From IMG/VR virus record IMGVR_UViG_3300030061_001589: a stretch of 20,000 nt of DNA; one strand, given 5' to 3'. Below the pieces are notes generated by a model. It saw only the letters and a list, made by a program, of their open reading frames with translations. It did no database searches and was not told the DNA's origin. Shown here piece after piece: positions 166 to 17,754 of this stretch; the stretch's first letter is position 1; each line of letters opens with the position of its first letter. Position numbers and translations under genes: made by a program. This DNA comes from an uncultured virus (IMG/VR IMGVR_UViG_3300030061_001589) (Duplodnaviria; Heunggongvirae; Uroviricota; Caudoviricetes).

Positions 166-6072
<5,907 letters not shown>

Positions 6073-8700: not shown

Positions 8701-9612
8701 TTAAGCCCTTACGCCTGTAATCTTACAGATTCGGTTGTTCTTACCTGCTGCTGCACCATCCTGCATTTCGTGGATAACGCTACCCATGTAAGATGTTAAT
8801 AGCCAATCAAAACCGACTCCCGGTAGACGTGTTAATTCTGTCTCTTGGAATCCCGGTCCGTTGTATGTGAAAAACTCGGCTGTTTCTGCGCCCGGTATAA
8901 GTAGTAGACCATCGTTTACCAATGCGCTACTTGCCCCGAAATCTCTTGTGTAGTAAATTGTTAGGTTTGCGATTCTACCCAAGTGTTGTTGTAGAGACTC
9001 GACTACGTTTCCGTATAGAGTTGTGTTAAGCATAGCACTTCTCTTGTCAGCAGGTAATACTAGAGCCATTGGCTCATTACCGCTAACCTTTGCGTTAGCA
9101 AAGATTAAGTCCATAGCGTCTAGCAAGTCTTTTTCCTCGTCTGCTGATGCACTACCGAATGTTGATGTTGCTGCTTGTGATTGTCCATTACCCGCCATTA
9201 ACTTTGTTAGGATATGGTTGTCTATTAAGTCTGCACGACCTCTTACAACAGCCATTTGTTGCCTGTCAATGTTCTCAAAGGATTCGCCACGTAGTCTTAC
9301 TGCGTCTAGGAATGTGACTCTACCCTGTCCTTTCTCAAGTTTAACTGTGTAGTTTGCTGTTCCGATGTTTGTTGGGTCTGTTAGAGCAACGTCATCAATT
9401 GGATAAGCGAATGTACCTGTCACTCCGGTGTACCACTTAAACTCTAACCAAGGAACGGTTCTTACACCGACCAAATCAGTCGCTATTGCGATTGTATTAG
9501 ACTGTAATTGAATGAAATCTCTTAGAGTCTGTTCTAAAACCGCATCTCCTACTGAAAACGGGCCTGTTGCTGCTTCTACATTTAATATTTCTTCTAGTGT
9601 GTTATTTACCAT
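8701..9612 (-). CDS. Major capsid protein (HK97 fold)
   Basis: ~303 aa, following protease-scaffold and cement genes. Pattern 'ANYTVKLEKGQGRVTFLDAVRL...AVVRGRADLIDNHILTKLMAG' matches HK97 E-loop/spine helix organisation. The true start is probably ATG 9612, because the track's GTG at 9621 is part of the GAGGTGA RBS. Confidence 0.8.
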   Translation of the reverse strand: MVNNTLEEILNVEAATGPFSVGDAVLEQTLRDFIQLQSNTIAIATDLVGVRTVPWLEFKWYTGVTGTFAYPIDDVALTDPTNIGTANYTVKLEKGQGRVTFLDAVRLRGESFENIDRQQMAVVRGRADLIDNHILTKLMAGNGQSQAATSTFGSASADEEKDLLDAMDLIFANAKVSGNEPMALVLPADKRSAMLNTTLYGNVVESLQQHLGRIANLTIYYTRDFGASSALVNDGLLLIPGAETAEFFTYNGPGFQETELTRLPGVGFDWLLTSYMGSVIHEMQDGAAAGKNNRICKITGVRA

Positions 9613-9640
9613 TTTATTCACCTCAATTTATTTGCTATAT

Positions 9641-10055: not shown

Positions 10056-11981
10056 TTATCTCATCTCCTTTATTGTGTCGTATGTTGGGGCAACCATTTG
10101 TGTGCCTTCTCCAACTGCGAGTGTTTTGTTCCATGCACCGGCCCAAGCGTTCCATGCTTTAGCGTATAGTGCTTCATCGTTTTCTACTACTCTACCATTT
10201 AGATAGTTAGAAACTTTGTGAGTTGATTCAGAAGCGATTGCTTCTTCGATAGGCTTCTCGACTGATTCAACAGGAGACATTTCTACTTCTGTTGGTGTCG
10301 GGTGTGCCTCATTCCATGAAGCAATTAGAGAAGTTAGTGTATCGGATGACAAATCTTCGTGTCCCGACATTCCTAATTCTGATGCCTCATCAACAAGAGT
10401 TTGACGTGATGCCTCTACTCTTGCTTCTTCTTTTGCCTCAAACTCGCCAACTCTTGAATTGGCTAAAACGAGGGAAGCCTTAAGTGCTTCAATTTCTGCT
10501 GCGTAATCTACTGTATTTTCTTCTTCGGTCATTATCTCACCTGTTTGTTGGTCTGTGTCAGTTTGTGAATGTCCTATAAAGGTTGCTTCTGCTGCCGTTG
10601 CTTCTATTTTTCGTATAGAATCTATTGTAGCCCTTTGATATGCGGGTTTATGTACAATAGCAAGGTGGTCGAACTTAAAATCTTCACCAAACAACATACC
10701 ATCTTCGGAAGCCTCGACAGGTACGCCGCTACCCCCAATTGACACTCCGTAGTTATCCCTAGACCATAGGCCGGACTCTAAAGCATCAAATAATTCTGTT
10801 CTTACAACGTGTGCTACATATCTAACTTCATAACCACCTGCTACGGTTTTATGGAATGATGCGCCTTTAATATATCCGACTACTGCTTCTTCTACGCCGC
10901 CATTCATATTTCTTGTAAAGCCACTACCATGTTCACTTGCTGCCGGATGATTTAATGTTAGGTCTGCACCTTTCATTTGTTCTGCTACTAACTTTGCACC
11001 TTCTTCTGTCAAAGCCCATTTGTTCTTATTCATACCTTCATGGAATGCTACGCCTCTTATTTCTATAACAGTTTCTCCGGTAGATGCTTCTACTATTGCT
11101 TCTACCTCATCGAAATCTAAATCTAGTGTGACAGAAACTTTTCTGCATTCACCATCTATCATTTCTTCACCATATCCACATTCCTTAGCATATTGCTTTT
11201 TCTTCATATAACCTGCTTCGTGGTCCTCTTCGTCATGTGCTTCATCTTGGTCTTTGAAAGTATGTCCTTCGTGTGCAGCCATACATTCTTCTTTAGAATA
11301 TCCTGCTTTTTGACACCTAGACATATATTCACCGTGTGTTTCAGAATCTTTAGGTGTAGGTTCTGCTGCTTGTTTCAAAGCCTTTTCCATTGAAGGTTCG
11401 GGGTCCTCTACATATGCAACACTCATACATTCACCATGAGATGCACATTTTTCTTGTGTCATACAAGAAGAACAAACGTCATATGCTGCTTCTGCCTTTT
11501 TCTTAATAGGAATACAGTTAGGTACTTTTCTACCATTTTTCATTTTCATACCGTATTGTTCATATCCCGCAGTACAAGGGTCATCGGCATCTTTAGCCTC
11601 GACTTCTTCATCATTACATCCACATCCACATGGTGTTCCATCTTCTGCTTCTACCTTTGTTCCGCCTCGCCATTGTCTACAAGACCAATACCTAGCCTTC
11701 CATTTTGGGCCGGGTGTTTTACAGTTATGTCTAGCACGAAACGATTTTCTTCTAGCGGGGTCATCTCTTTTGATTTCCATGTTAGGGTCGCCAAATCGTA
11801 CAATAACTACTGTGCCGCTACCATTTTTAGTATATACTGCAAACTTTTTAGGTCCACCCTTTGTTCTAAAGGGTTTATTGAGACTTACAGTACGGCCTTG
11901 ATACTCGGCTGCTGAAACATCTTCTTCATCCCATTCTTCGTATGCTACTACTTCGCCACTACAACCGCATCCGCACGACAT
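10056..11981 (-). CDS. Prohead maturation protease fused to a C-terminal scaffold, with a ~300-aa N-terminal multi-module extension
   Basis: Assemblin/HK97-type protease motifs 'IRGVAF', 'LTLNHP' (His), 'GVSIGG' (Ser) and 'DHLAIVHKPAY' at aa ~305-455. Acidic coiled coil follows (YAAEIEALKASL...). Located between portal and MCP. Confidence 0.8.
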   Translation of the reverse strand: MSCGCGCSGEVVAYEEWDEEDVSAAEYQGRTVSLNKPFRTKGGPKKFAVYTKNGSGTVVIVRFGDPNMEIKRDDPARRKSFRARHNCKTPGPKWKARYWSCRQWRGGTKVEAEDGTPCGCGCNDEEVEAKDADDPCTAGYEQYGMKMKNGRKVPNCIPIKKKAEAAYDVCSSCMTQEKCASHGECMSVAYVEDPEPSMEKALKQAAEPTPKDSETHGEYMSRCQKAGYSKEECMAAHEGHTFKDQDEAHDEEDHEAGYMKKKQYAKECGYGEEMIDGECRKVSVTLDLDFDEVEAIVEASTGETVIEIRGVAFHEGMNKNKWALTEEGAKLVAEQMKGADLTLNHPAASEHGSGFTRNMNGGVEEAVVGYIKGASFHKTVAGGYEVRYVAHVVRTELFDALESGLWSRDNYGVSIGGSGVPVEASEDGMLFGEDFKFDHLAIVHKPAYQRATIDSIRKIEATAAEATFIGHSQTDTDQQTGEIMTEEENTVDYAAEIEALKASLVLANSRVGEFEAKEEARVEASRQTLVDEASELGMSGHEDLSSDTLTSLIASWNEAHPTPTEVEMSPVESVEKPIEEAIASESTHKVSNYLNGRVVENDEALYAKAWNAWAGAWNKTLAVGEGTQMVAPTYDTIKEMR

Positions 11982-12475: not shown

Positions 12476-12982
12476 TTACTTTTTGCTGCCTTTAGTAATT
12501 TGAAATGCTTCCATATCTAAAGTATGTTTTTGTTGCATGGCTTCCATATCCAAATCGTGTTGTAGTTTTAATTCTTCTAGTTTACGAGTATGGTTTTTAG
12601 ATGCGTTAGTAGATTCTACGTCAGCGTTTAGTCTGTCGGGTAATACTGCAATTTTAGCACTTTCTTTACCCTTAAATAAATCTAGTACACTTGTTATAAT
12701 AAGAAGTGCAGGACCACCTAATAGACCAATAACTGTAAGTTGTGAATCCGATATATCCCTTTGTTCTACAACGCTGTAATAAGAAGCAGCCGCAGCGATT
12801 ATAACCCACGCCATAACAACACCCATACCAAAAGTTAGCATAAGTGTTTCGTTGGGATTTGACATTTTTGGGCTACTCATGTCTTTTCGTTGTTCGGGGT
12901 GTCTTTTAAGTATTATTGCTGCAACAGCACCCAAAGCCGCTAAAACAAGGCTATACACCGCAAATTGTAATTCCGGTATCAT
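12476..12982 (-). CDS. Multi-pass membrane protein (about 3 TM helices) with charged C-terminal coiled coil; holin-like candidate
   Basis: Three hydrophobic stretches (aa ~6-25, 47-68, 83-103). ATGA overlap with the portal stop. Confidence 0.6.
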   Translation of the reverse strand: MIPELQFAVYSLVLAALGAVAAIILKRHPEQRKDMSSPKMSNPNETLMLTFGMGVVMAWVIIAAAASYYSVVEQRDISDSQLTVIGLLGGPALLIITSVLDLFKGKESAKIAVLPDRLNADVESTNASKNHTRKLEELKLQHDLDMEAMQQKHTLDMEAFQITKGSKK

Positions 12983-14373
12983 ATATCTTCCTCACTAGGT
13001 GCGCTTTCTTGTTCATTCTCTCTAGGTAAACTTCCTACATTTGCAGGTTGTTCGACCTCTTTTCTTTCATCACCTTCTTTGCCTATTTCCGGTAAGTTTA
13101 GAATATCAAGGGATTGATTAAGCGTAAGTAGGCCACCATCATAACCCATTGTGACTCTTTGCATAACATTTAGTGGAGACTCCATATCCATAGCGTCAAA
13201 CTTGATAGTAGGCAAATCTTGTCGTCTATATGTTATACCTAATAGGTCTAAGTGCATCATAAATAGTTGCATAGCCGATTCCGCTAGTATTTTGTGCATA
13301 CGGCTTATTGCTTGTACGGCCCAAAGGTTAGCATTGAATGTTGCTGCGAATGTAGAGCCACGTTCTTGACCTGCTGCTACTCTTGGTACTTGCAGAACGG
13401 CTGCAATATCGGCATTTATACTATCTAGGAAATCTGCACTATTAGGCATTGTATTACCTAAATCTACGTGGTGTAGATTAACGTAATGCGGTAATACAGG
13501 TATTTGGTCGCCCCTTAAACCGGAGAATAAACTAATTACCTCATCCATAATAAATGATAGTCTTTGTGATTGCTCAACAGGGTCTTGTATGTGTTCAATA
13601 GCAGATTTGTCTATTGTAATGTATTGTTTAGTCATAGCATCTTCTAAAGATATACGATTATTCATACTGTTGTATTTCATGCGTATTGCTTGTTTTAGTG
13701 CCGAGAAACGTGATGCACCCCATATACCATAAGTCTTTCTACCTTTGTTATCTGTAAACCAATTAGAACGGAAATCAACCTTTATGTGTAATATTTCTTT
13801 TGCGGAAATAGCAACTTCGTAAGGTGATGTTTCCCGCATAATATATGTTCTTGGGTTAATTATAGGGTTATCTTCGTCAGCAACGAAGTAAGAACCTACA
13901 CCGCCTCTTTCATCAACAATAGTTATTTGTTTGATAGGAAGGCTTTGTAGACCTGTGACTCCTATACCTTGTTTACCTACTATTTTGTTAATGTCATTAC
14001 CGTAAACCATCATATTACGCATAGAGTTAATCATAATGTCATCAAAGTCAAGAGTATCTTCTACAAGTGTCTGTATGGCGTTTCTTATCTGTGCATTTTT
14101 ACCTTTAGAATAATTTATTTCGTAATTATTAGCCGTAAGTGATACAGCACGAACCGCACCGTTCAATTCCGGGTCTAACTTCAACATAAGGTCATACAAA
14201 TCAAACTCATTGTCAAACTTACTGTCTTGTCTTAGTTTTTCTGTATCTCTAACAATATCCGGTATTCCTGCAATTGCTGAAAACTTTTCGTTAGTAGATA
14301 ACGCTATTCTCTTCGGTTCTACGGGTTTTTCTACACTTCCGGTTAATCTTTTCCACAAACTTCGCTCGGCCAT
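12979..14373 (-). CDS. Portal protein
   Basis: 464 aa, first gene of the head operon. Portal-like motifs: 'LYDLMLKLDPELNGAV', 'MMVYGND', 'EILHIK', 'YGIWGASRF', 'IAAVLQVP', 'GLLTLNQSLDILNLP'. Confidence 0.8.
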   Translation of the reverse strand: MAERSLWKRLTGSVEKPVEPKRIALSTNEKFSAIAGIPDIVRDTEKLRQDSKFDNEFDLYDLMLKLDPELNGAVRAVSLTANNYEINYSKGKNAQIRNAIQTLVEDTLDFDDIMINSMRNMMVYGNDINKIVGKQGIGVTGLQSLPIKQITIVDERGGVGSYFVADEDNPIINPRTYIMRETSPYEVAISAKEILHIKVDFRSNWFTDNKGRKTYGIWGASRFSALKQAIRMKYNSMNNRISLEDAMTKQYITIDKSAIEHIQDPVEQSQRLSFIMDEVISLFSGLRGDQIPVLPHYVNLHHVDLGNTMPNSADFLDSINADIAAVLQVPRVAAGQERGSTFAATFNANLWAVQAISRMHKILAESAMQLFMMHLDLLGITYRRQDLPTIKFDAMDMESPLNVMQRVTMGYDGGLLTLNQSLDILNLPEIGKEGDERKEVEQPANVGSLPRENEQESAPSEEDI

Positions 14374-16239: not shown

Positions 16240-17754
16240 ATGGCTACATTCAATACTAATTTTTCTATGGAACGTAGTCGTAATGACGTAGAGTATTTCT
16301 ACAAGTGGTTAGGTTATACTTGGGGAGAACATATAGGTGAGTGGGTAAATATGTACGGAGATAATCACGACAATTCTTCTGTACATCGTGTTTGTATTAT
16401 TGCACCGAGGGACCACAGTAAATCAACTACTTTAAGGGTAAAACTATTACACATGGCTCTTTTTGAACAATGGCGTAATAAACCGTTTACTTGTTGGTTA
16501 TTTTCTGCTAGTAAAGACCTAGCAGTTAGGAGGTTGGAAGAAATAAGAGAAGATATGAAAAGGCATCCTCAATTATCTAGGTATCTCGACCCTAAGAGGG
16601 GAAACAAACTAGAAATACGTTTTACTAACGGTGCATGGATTCGTGCTACTTCTGTTGGTGCGGCTATTCGTGGAGAACACCCTGCGGCTATTGCATTTGA
16701 TGACGTACTTGATGATATGGGGGATATGAATTGGAATAACATAGCACAATGGTTTAGAAAGAAGATTACACCTATGTTGAGTCCCGGTACAGCAATTTTC
16801 GTAGTAGGTACACCTATGAGTATGAATGATTTATACCACACAGAAATGTTAGAGAATAAAACATGGAAATCGGGTACGTGGTCTGCTATTCCTAATTGGG
16901 ATGAACATAAAGCCGACCCACTAAATATTAAGCCTGTAGAGTTATGGGCCGAATATAGACCTATTAAGTTTTTACTAGAACAAAAAGAGGCTATGGGTGA
17001 ATTATCCTTTGTACAAGAATATTTGTGTAAAGTAGTAGATGACGAGGCTAGTGTGTTTCCTAGAATGCTAATTAGAAAAAATATGGATATGGATGCTATA
17101 TTACAGACTGATAAAATGGATGGGTACAGATATGTTATAGGTTTTGACCCTGCACATGGATTAGGGCAAGATTACAGCGTTATGATATGCCTAAAGCAAG
17201 ATGATGACGGTTATATTCACTTTGTAGATATGTGGAGAAGAAATGACTTTCCACCGGATAAACAAGCAGATATGTTGATAGAGTGGGCTAAACGCTACGG
17301 TAATTGTCCGATAGCGGTTGAGGATGTAGGTTTCCAACAAATGTATGAAAGTTTACTTGCACAAAAAGGTGCGGTAGTAGATTACAGGGCTAGTAAGGTT
17401 AGTAATAGAACACTAAAGCAAGGATTACTAAATAGGCTTAGAGTTTGGTTTGAAAGAGAAATGATAATATTCCCCTTCGGTAATGACACTACTAGAACAA
17501 AGGTAGGTATATTATTACAAGAATTAGAAACCCATGCGTGGCGTGATGGGATTATAGTAGATTTAGGCAGACATAACGATACAGTTATGGCTTTTGCACA
17601 CGCCATAGACCAATTCACATACAGGACACCCGATATGCCGGTAATTATGAAAACCATGAAAGGCGGCGATTGGTTAGGTGGTGATACACAAATGCAAAGA
17701 ATAAGTAAGCATGAAGGTCTTGGTGGAAAAATAATAGATAGGAGAGGATGGTAA
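16240..17754 (+). CDS. terL: Terminase large subunit
   Basis: Walker A-like 'IIAPRDHSKST', 'AIRGEHP', Walker B 'IAFDD', coupling motif 'VGTP', 'FVQEYLC', and RNase H-like nuclease 'IGFDPA..DYS..AVE..HNDTVMA'. Confidence 0.93.
   Translation: MATFNTNFSMERSRNDVEYFYKWLGYTWGEHIGEWVNMYGDNHDNSSVHRVCIIAPRDHSKSTTLRVKLLHMALFEQWRNKPFTCWLFSASKDLAVRRLEEIREDMKRHPQLSRYLDPKRGNKLEIRFTNGAWIRATSVGAAIRGEHPAAIAFDDVLDDMGDMNWNNIAQWFRKKITPMLSPGTAIFVVGTPMSMNDLYHTEMLENKTWKSGTWSAIPNWDEHKADPLNIKPVELWAEYRPIKFLLEQKEAMGELSFVQEYLCKVVDDEASVFPRMLIRKNMDMDAILQTDKMDGYRYVIGFDPAHGLGQDYSVMICLKQDDDGYIHFVDMWRRNDFPPDKQADMLIEWAKRYGNCPIAVEDVGFQQMYESLLAQKGAVVDYRASKVSNRTLKQGLLNRLRVWFEREMIIFPFGNDTTRTKVGILLQELETHAWRDGIIVDLGRHNDTVMAFAHAIDQFTYRTPDMPVIMKTMKGGDWLGGDTQMQRISKHEGLGGKIIDRRGW

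Follow-up and report, generated by a model that had tools for sequence, protein, structure and literature searches.

A string of shuffled mini-modules with an Ala-type junction motif ahead of a predicted assemblin-fold protease in an uncultured tailed virus

Described head-protease systems and the P0001 gene

The head protease of phage T4, gp21, cuts after Glu in the motif (L/I)-x-E. The T4 internal proteins (IPI-III and Alt) are loaded by means of a targeting peptide (CTS) and trimmed by gp21, as stated in the sections of PMC9958956 drawn on here. The head proteases of giant phages (SPN3US gp245 and phiKZ gp175) recognize A-x-E and also cut after Glu (PMC10052503, relevant sections). In herpesviruses, the release (R) and maturation (M) sites of pUL26 are given as YLQA-T and VQA-S in the corresponding part of PMC4498786. 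Finally, the available text of Iyer et al. 2017 (PMC5512222) places an assemblin-like peptidase at the C-terminus of some polyvalent proteins, which it probably processes during virion assembly. Here, P0001, a 641-aa open reading frame (ORF) on the minus strand of a 20,000-nucleotide stretch of DNA (the window) from the uncultured marine Caudoviricetes virus IMGVR_UViG_3300030061_001589, is compared with these systems. It consists of an N-terminal module string (aa 1–299), a capsid protease (300–461), a linker (462–483) and a scaffold-like tail (484–641). It is probably a three-part capsid-maturation polyprotein, i.e., a rack of modules, a protease of the assemblin/gp21 fold and a scaffold-like tail.

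P0001 resembles the herpesvirus UL26/UL26.5 system (MEROPS S21) in its fold, the order of protease and scaffold, a nested start and Ala-type sites, which in P0001 are known from sequence or prediction. However, nothing lies upstream of the herpesvirus protease, whereas P0001 has 299 aa of shuffled modules there. In addition, the two systems share no detectable sequence similarity, the residue following the candidate cut (P1′) at the cargo joints of P0001 is mostly not Ser, and the host of the P0001 virus is prokaryotic. With the polyvalent proteins, as portrayed in the available text, P0001 shares the joining of many unrelated domains in one phage polypeptide, variable architectures and an embedded peptidase proposed to release them. 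Their peptidase is C-terminal, whereas 180 more residues (linker and scaffold-like tail) follow the protease in P0001, and the P0001 modules are small, belong to families of unknown function and have a defined motif at each joint. The general idea of a polyvalent phage protein with an assemblin-like peptidase is already published, and the P0001 family may be among the examples of Iyer et al. 2017 (PMC5512222).

Other systems differ in the way cargo is attached. In T4, the cargo comes from separate genes and bears a short N-terminal tag, whereas the proposed cargo of P0001 is fused covalently into the precursor of the protease, with Ala as the fixed residue. The giant-phage proteases resemble that of P0001 in that one head protease cuts itself and many head proteins at a short motif, with multiple cuts in long propeptides; however, their substrates, including ejection proteins, are separate, and the sections of PMC10052503 used here describe no cassette string on the protease. 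MuF polymorphic toxins (Jamet et al. 2017, PMC5576092) likewise combine a conserved head-associated carrier with exchangeable, variable domains proposed to be transported inside the capsid. Their carrier is MuF rather than the protease, with a single variable C-terminal toxin, an immunity gene and no protease-site joints. Full-text searches of open-access papers turned up neither the P0001 family nor a phage head protease with a V-x-Ala code. Three features had no counterpart in those papers: the explicit and controlled junction code of the Ala type, an alphabet of mini-modules that recurs in very common orphan genes of marine viruses, and the pairing of both with a nested scaffold.

N-terminal modules, their shuffling and the junction motif

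The N-terminal string (aa 1–299) corresponds exactly to window positions 11085–11981 (Table 1). The initial annotation, made from the sequence alone, described the roughly 300 aa ahead of the protease as discrete mini-modules, and this is borne out: every motif that it listed is present, i.e., CGCGC (aa 3–7 and 118–122), DPCTAGYEQYG...NCIP (134–158), CSSC..C..C (170–185), PTPKDSETHGEYMSRC (208–223) and ECGYGEEMIDGEC (267–279). The observation is confirmed, and its interpretation as a releasable cargo string is partly supported. P0001 has seven modules ahead of the protease, each of 13–88 aa, and those of relatives reach about 110 aa. Their matches are limited to families of unknown function (phrog_7595, phrog_9737, DUF3721 and DUF5824). 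The predicted model of the N-terminal part resembles beads on a disordered string, in which module F, a helical hairpin with a predicted local distance difference test (pLDDT) score of ~80, is the sole well-modelled part; no fold could be assigned to the modules.

Table 1. Features of the P0001 locus. Arrows mark candidate cleavage positions.
Feature	Residues	Window position	Strand	Remarks
P0001, whole ORF	1–641	10056..11981	minus	stop codon 10056-10058
Leader	1–13	11943..11981	minus	MSCGCGCSGEVVA; CxCxC element then V-V-A
Acidic arm	14–24	11910..11942	minus	YEEWDEEDVSA
Module B	25–112	11646..11909	minus	basic, ends KVEA; phrog_7595, 1.7e-14
Linker c	113–129	11595..11645	minus	EDGTPCGCGCNDEEVEA; second CGCGC plus VEA
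Module D	130–165	11487..11594	minus	KDADDPC..GYEQYG..NCIP, then KKKAEA; phrog_9737, 2.7e-5
Module E	166–205	11367..11486	minus	four-Cys (CxxC-x5-C-x5-C), tail ends LKQA
Module F	206–257	11211..11366	minus	AEPTP..ETHxEYMxRC..C..AHEGH, then acidic His-rich tail
Module J and pro-linker	258–299	11085..11210	minus	C-x10-C hairpin, then VTLDLDFDEVEA-IVEA, ending Ala299↓Ser300
Capsid maturation protease domain	300–461	10599..11084	minus	fold from predicted structure
Protease-scaffold linker	462–483	10533..10598	minus	AAEA↓TFIGHS; GGTGA ribosome-binding motif at 10537-10541
Scaffold-like tail	484–641 (158 aa)	10059..10532	minus	conserved LIA↓S (554/555) and x-[VI]-x-A↓S (583/584)
Putative major capsid protein	303 aa	8701..9612	minus	from ATG 9610-9612; role from position and size
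Candidate 14-residue propeptide		9571-9612	minus	MVNNTLEEILNVEA↓A
Portal gene		12979-14373	minus	Pfam Phage_portal, 1e-9

The Ala-ending tetrapeptides in this part are EVVA (10–13), DVSA (21–24), KVEA (109–112), EVEA (126–129), KAEA (162–165), LKQA (202–205), DHEA (253–256), EVEA (292–295) and IVEA-S (296–300). They had been proposed to bound almost every module, which holds for most borders; DHEA lies in a non-conserved low-complexity stretch, and EVVA and DVSA fall inside the segment shared with the arm of module B. Indeed, the acidic arm is probably part of module B's own N-terminal arm, and a cut at DVSA↓A is doubtful. In free-standing copies of module B, a similar Cys pair and then a YE-acidic arm lie ahead of EYQG. 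In the family, [VILMA]xA follows the CxCxC element within 14 aa in 96 of 130 elements, with Ala at +6 or +7 in 86 of those.

A search with aa 285–641 gave 680 homologues, of which the best 120 were studied. They share 60–99% identity over this part, and their total length ranges from 377 to 842 aa, since the stretch ahead of the protease varies from 15 to 481 aa. The module alphabet comprises the leader (M-S-C-x-C-x-C), B, the CGCGC linker, D, E, F, G (a longer RCMGD-type variant of F), H (DUF3721-like), I (DUF5824) and J, with J and the leader present in most members. Relatives that are 85–99% identical in the conserved part differ by whole cassettes. For instance, P0004 (96% identity in that part) has no module E, and in P0002 (99%) G, as a longer RCMAD/RCMGD-type variant, replaces F. 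In P0009 and P0011, an E-type module follows F (order DFE instead of DEF), P0010 carries the DUF3721-like module H in place of c and D, and P0013 and P0014 have no module B. On a FastTree tree built from the protease-scaffold part only (120 rows, N-terminal modules left out), the minimum numbers of presence/absence changes are 16 for B, 20 for D, 11 for E, 19 for F, 7 for G, 13 for H and 2 for I, and 41 regex-defined architectures occur among 121 proteins; these architecture and loss counts are upper bounds because about 20 of the 121 proteins, probably truncated or wrongly called, begin within a module. As to gene starts, 87 of the 121 begin at the leader, as M(x0-3)CxC, 3 plus 2 have the leader after an over-long upstream call, and 6 begin at module G. 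Gain, loss, replacement and reordering are all seen, as expected of the swappable cassettes that had been postulated, and both the alignment with relatives and the tree reveal shuffled modules rather than one conserved folded N-terminal domain.

The borders of these modules carry a short motif. [VIL]-E-A occurs 8 times in P0001 against an expectation of 1.22 ± 1.12, and none of 2000 composition-preserving shuffles reaches 8; no [VIL]EA enrichment is present in the ten other window ORFs tested. Among 110 unique N-termini, [VILMA]-x-A ending within 4 aa upstream of a module start precedes 398 of 419 module starts, compared with 3055 of 22000 random positions (13.9%). This applies to B (87/87), D (68/69), F (71/77), E (38/49), H (19/21), I (6/7) and the protease (109/109), and x-x-A(-A) stands directly upstream of module F in 87 of the 87 copies found. 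The motif persists when the upstream neighbour changes: whether the leader, the CGCGC linker, D, E or I comes ahead of it, EPTP follows ...VEAA, ...AEAA, ...EVAA, ...KQAA or ...VIAA. Val occupies P3 in 289 of the 398 junctions. At P2, several residues alternate (E 236, T 45, A 34, I 32, S 27 and V 22) while Ala is constant; thus, Ala and not Glu is the fixed residue of the junction. The residues seen at P1′ are A, E, K, S, G and T. The proposed enrichment at module borders is therefore upheld whatever the neighbour, with Ala rather than Glu as its core.

Two other explanations of the motif were discarded. A T4-like cut after Glu (V-E↓A) is contradicted by the varying residue before the fixed Ala, and a DNA recombination joint by the spelling of VEA, which uses 14 different codon triplets near background codon usage; the constraint therefore acts on the protein. 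Junctions mapped from BLAST segment ends were unusable, being blurred by gapped alignments.

Free-standing copies of the modules provide a further comparison. Module B has at least 7999 short homologues at E ≤ 0.001 (of 8000 candidates scored), and in 37 records from cultured or assembled phages it has a small gene to itself; pelagiphages, roseophages, cyanophages and a Nitrosopumilaceae spindle virus are among these. In the polyprotein copies, the anchor YWSCxxW is followed by x5-V-E-A in 98 of 98 cases. Among the best 120 of the short homologues, 56 terminate exactly at the polyprotein's Ala position, with VDN, VDS, VED, etc., and never VEA, and 36 run on into other domains via VDE, VKQ or VED. 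A further 14 end at the anchor, 2 end within the next seven residues and 4 have no anchor; the remaining 8 continue with VEA and resemble N-terminal fragments of polyproteins. A cut after Ala would therefore free B with a natural C-terminus, and VEA is specific to the protease-linked context. The picture is similar for module D: its anchor is present in 109 short homologues, of which 92 end no more than 4 residues from NC[IV]P, and in the 78 polyprotein copies a short basic spacer is followed by (A/V)-E-A.

An alternative is that the junctions are not cleaved at all and that V-x-Ala provides flexible linkers or joints easing recombination, the string remaining attached. P1′ at the junctions departs from the herpesvirus rule, the beads-on-disordered-string model is explicable by linkers alone, and module D is joined in another protease family (see below) via L-K-A/K-P, which resembles no known cut site. 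However, the same tripeptide is found at the capsid N-terminus, at the N-border of the protease (118/120) and at two scaffold sites with Ser at P1′, which is the pattern expected for substrates of one protease. Furthermore, B fusions outside the protease context use VDE, VKQ or VED and never VEA, the varying VEA codons leave no DNA-level joint, and a plain linker need not match the natural C-termini of free-standing modules. An uncleaved string is quite improbable, and cleavage at the joints is likely.

The modules also occur on unrelated proteins. XkdF-type prohead proteases (PF14550), which belong to another phage lineage with contigs of about 30 kb, carry D, DUF3721 and the J-like hairpin at their C-terminal side, as seen in 50 of 120 short homologues among the matches listed and confirmed by Pfam in 3 of the 3 scanned (P0374, P0384 and P0429). 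These uncharacterised metagenomic proteins thus bear the same small modules as P0001, but after the protease and with L-K-(A/K)-P instead of V-x-A as the joint of D. Two capsid-protease families with the same modules are a hint that points to the capsid. As a side observation, module B is fused elsewhere (P0181, P0215, P0200, P0291 and P0242) to adenylate kinase, a PAP2-type phosphatase, DUF5824, PF19197 and RCM[SG]D-type modules, with joints that are never VEA.

The fusions of B homologues to cytoplasmic enzymes (adenylate kinase and the PAP2 phosphatase), as well as their position outside clear head modules in cultured phages, would also suit a cytoplasmic expression device, an economical route to several small accessory proteins, in which modules are freed before or independently of capsid assembly and act in the infected cell. 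Against this stand the two capsid-protease families bearing the same modules, the co-expression with late head genes and the linkage to a scaffold-bearing protease, which would waste proteins needed early. Moreover, the capsid proteases of this superfamily are kept inactive until assembly, according to the relevant passages of PMC9958956 and PMC4498786. Such a device is the least probable of the explanations weighed here, and a very improbable one.

Protease domain, scaffold-like tail and neighbouring genes

The protease domain was modelled with AF2 (aa 285–475) on an alignment of 39 sequences including distant ones, with a mean pLDDT of 88.2 and a predicted TM-score of 0.81. In a Foldseek search of the PDB, herpesvirus proteases and T4 gp21 rank first, although no match reaches E ≤ 0.001 (best 1.7e-3). 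Against the predicted viral structures of BFVD, 205 matches at E ≤ 0.001 were obtained, many of them named prohead or head-maturation protease. The predicted structure thereby confirms an assemblin/T4 gp21 fold. The candidate catalytic triad, assigned from conservation, comprises His345 (codon 10947-10949), Ser414 (10740-10742, in GVSIGG) and His439 (10665-10667, in DHLAIV), which are at least 90% conserved in the 39 sequences and invariant in 32. The spacing of 69 and 25 residues equals that of the cytomegalovirus triad (His63, Ser132 and His157); the structure alignment ranges are in register, and PDB titles name H157 as a catalytic-site residue.

The initial annotation had called the domain an HK97-type protease homologous to assemblin. 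The assemblin link stands on the predicted structure, but the HK97-type label is only loosely right because no Pfam, PHROG, NCBIfam or PDB profile recognizes aa 285–641, the PDB sequences having been searched with both the single protein and a 39-sequence profile; the domain therefore forms a separate sequence family within the fold superfamily. In Pfam, which includes Peptidase_S78, S78_2, S77 and S21, the domain, 10 full-length homologues and 11 distant relatives gave no hit at E ≤ 1 except Mu-like_Pro (E 0.17). An exhaustive HMMER search of 1.84 billion representatives returned 51 clusters at E ≤ 0.001. The distant relatives (P0156–P0166) are 31–41% identical, and some of them (271–436 aa) carry the domain N-terminally without extension. 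They are very acidic, halovirus-like and free of the N-terminal module string; magrovirus proteases have been reported to be halovirus-like in the pertinent section of PMC5434244.

Two side observations concern this domain. A V-(E/S/D)-Ala loop (aa 421–424, 10710-10721 minus), ten residues past Ser414, is kept in 96 of 120 family members and may be an internal autolysis site, by analogy with cytomegalovirus assemblin, which has an internal cleavage site. Separately, the annotations of two BFVD structural relatives, A0A6J5N5R9 (679 aa) and A0A6J5RFH1 (622 aa), name a ferritin/Dps domain; going by these, this would be a further kind of cargo fused to a head protease.

Candidate sites also flank and follow the protease. 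At Ala299↓Ser300, [VILMA]xA has its Ala at the same column in 118 of 120 unique sequences, and Ala299 is invariant in 32 aligned proteins. The additional Ala-ending sites that had been noticed after the protease are all present, i.e., KIEA (458–461), AAEA (463–466), RVEA-S (521–525) and AIA-S (581–584). The linker site is semi-conserved as (I/M/V/A)-(E/K)-A↓T-F-I-(S/G)-H-S, and [VIL]xA occurs in 58 of 73 unique linkers, compared with 46% of shuffles. In the tail, 116 of 120 sequences retain LIA↓S and 105 of 120 retain x-[VI]-x-A↓S, the latter lying 58 residues ahead of the strongly conserved C-terminus. The arrangement of these candidate sites parallels that of the R and M sites of pUL26.

Just past the linker, Met484 (10530-10532 minus) is nearly invariant and is preceded by AGGTGA (within 10533-10544) at the same spacing as before the capsid gene and other window genes. 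A Shine-Dalgarno (SD)-like pentamer at −17 to −5 of this codon is present in 22 of 25 ORFs, compared with 26 of 513 other internal ATGs (5%). It persists despite differing encoded residues (QTGEI, NKVIK, EKVKA, DLVND...) and frequently includes GTG, a codon that encodes only 7% of the Val residues of these genes; no SD-like motif is found upstream of the start of the full-length P0001 ORF. These signals suggest that the 158-aa tail is probably also translated alone from Met484. A nested scaffold gene has precedents in herpesvirus UL26.5 and lambda Nu3, and by analogy with UL26.5 and UL26 the Met484 product would be made in bulk and the full-length protein in small amounts.

The ORF at 8701-9612 presumably encodes the major capsid protein, given its position and size; it matches no Pfam or PHROG family, and a tblastn search of 50,697 phage records gave no match. 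The ORF lister had placed its start at GTG 9619-9621 (306 aa), and the ATG three codons downstream, with GAGGTGA upstream, matches the start of relatives. Residues 11–15 in 62 loci read VEAA in 44, PTAA in 14 and other sequences in 4 (VSAA among the variants), and the only [VIL]EA of the protein is this site of the candidate N-terminal propeptide.

P0001 is located in the head block between the portal and capsid-like genes. The minus-strand order is portal, two small ORFs, P0001, a 137-aa ORF and the capsid-like ORF, and it is identical in locus L075. More structural ORFs follow the capsid-like ORF, the last of which encodes a 1968-aa collagen-repeat tail fibre, and the exonuclease and large terminase genes are on the opposite strand from the head block. 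The tail-fibre-like protein (166-6072 minus) has collagen triple-helix repeats (Pfam Collagen, 5.4e-68), matches many PHROG tail-fibre families and covers the part of the window that is richer in G+C (0.49-0.55 at 1001-5000). In the portal protein, x-[V/I/A]-Ala↓Gly-[I/V]-Pro-Asp at aa 33–37 is kept in 53 of 53 homologues with N-terminal coverage, after a more variable stretch of the first ~30 residues; it may be a processing site or merely a conserved structural element. The lineage is uncultured, with genomes of about 67-73 kb, and is probably lytic. Its large terminase (16240-17754) is at most 25.6% identical to those of cultured phages (that of a T4-like cyanophage), and a pattern scan of 185,579 species genomes found no relatives of the protease.

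Proposed maturation and its implications

In the proposed three-part polyprotein, the N-terminal rack would present small, independently folding modules (3-10 kDa) that differ from strain to strain, and the tail would carry the full-length protein into the assembling procapsid. After closure of the shell, the protease would cut behind the Ala of (V/I/L/A)-x-Ala. Cuts at IVEA↓S and AAEA↓T would free the protease, those at LIA↓S and AIA↓S would process the scaffold tail, and that at NVEA↓A would trim 14 residues off the capsid protein, while each N-terminal module would be released by the cuts at its junctions. Module B (10.1 kDa, isoelectric point (pI) 10.9, 22 Lys and Arg) would be the likeliest to stay with the DNA, and small acidic pieces may exit the capsid. 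Loading of the modules into the capsid is plausible, whereas their retention there or injection is rather doubtful.

The size of the pieces also bears on another possibility, namely that the string is processed but that its pieces act only in assembly, by controlling or delaying protease activation, nucleating at the portal or filling space, and are then expelled with the scaffold fragments. Most of them are small (1.2-5.9 kDa) and acidic (pI 4.1-4.6), and module J and the leader, being present in most family members, are propeptide-like. The parts of PMC9958956 and PMC10052503 considered here state that propeptide and scaffold fragments generally leave proheads and, in the former, that T4 gp21 is activated by loss of its own N-terminal residues. 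Yet, such a role would favour a conserved N-terminus and not strain-level swaps of unrelated modules. In addition, B and D are also free-standing genes in phages without this protease, and the 10-kDa, strongly basic module B is like DNA-associated internal proteins. A function confined to assembly is unlikely, albeit less so than an uncleaved string.

Several points weigh against the polyprotein with releasable cargo. Peptides of 1-6 kDa usually exit proheads (PMC9958956 and PMC10052503, in the same parts), so several of the "cargo" pieces may be discarded. The scaffold role of aa 484–641 is suggested by position and analogy. The looser [VIL]-x-A is only weakly enriched in the whole of P0001 (15 occurrences, with 9.7 expected and 15 reached in 92 of 2000 shuffles), and part of the motif, namely the Ala-Ala ahead of EYQGR and EPTP, may be intrinsic to the modules. 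At the cargo joints, P1′ is mostly Ala, Glu or Lys, with Ser in just 32 of 398 cases, contrary to the A↓S rule of herpesviruses, and these junctions are non-independent events, the sequences being related. To these are added the weak PDB matches and missing profile matches of the protease domain and the gene calls that inflate the architecture and loss counts.

A broader form of the proposal, in which any small domain placed between V-x-Ala joints is brought into the procapsid by the scaffold tail, freed, retained alongside the DNA and passed on to the host, is tentative. If this rack exists, B, D, DUF3721, DUF5824 and the RCMGD-type module would be virion-internal, possibly injected mini-proteins, and two unrelated capsid-protease families would have recruited such modules independently. 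Few orphan proteins of marine viromes are commoner than these modules, which are found in archaeal spindle viruses as well as in genomes resembling those of myo-, podo- and siphoviruses. The proposal would thus put abundant orphan families (the phrog_7595 domain, module D, DUF3721 and DUF5824) inside the capsid, which would be their first likely role.

The V/I/L/A-x-Ala code can be read from sequence, and if it holds, the mature capsid, scaffold and cargo products would become predictable across this uncultured lineage and searchable in metaproteomes. A self-releasing cargo rack on a capsid protease would also offer a natural design for filling phage capsids with foreign proteins. Together, the Ala-specific code and the nested scaffold gene would constitute the closest parallel to UL26/UL26.5 yet in a prokaryotic virus, and an assemblin fold combined with a nested scaffold and Ala-type sites in such a virus would sharpen the evolutionary link between tailed phages and herpesviruses.

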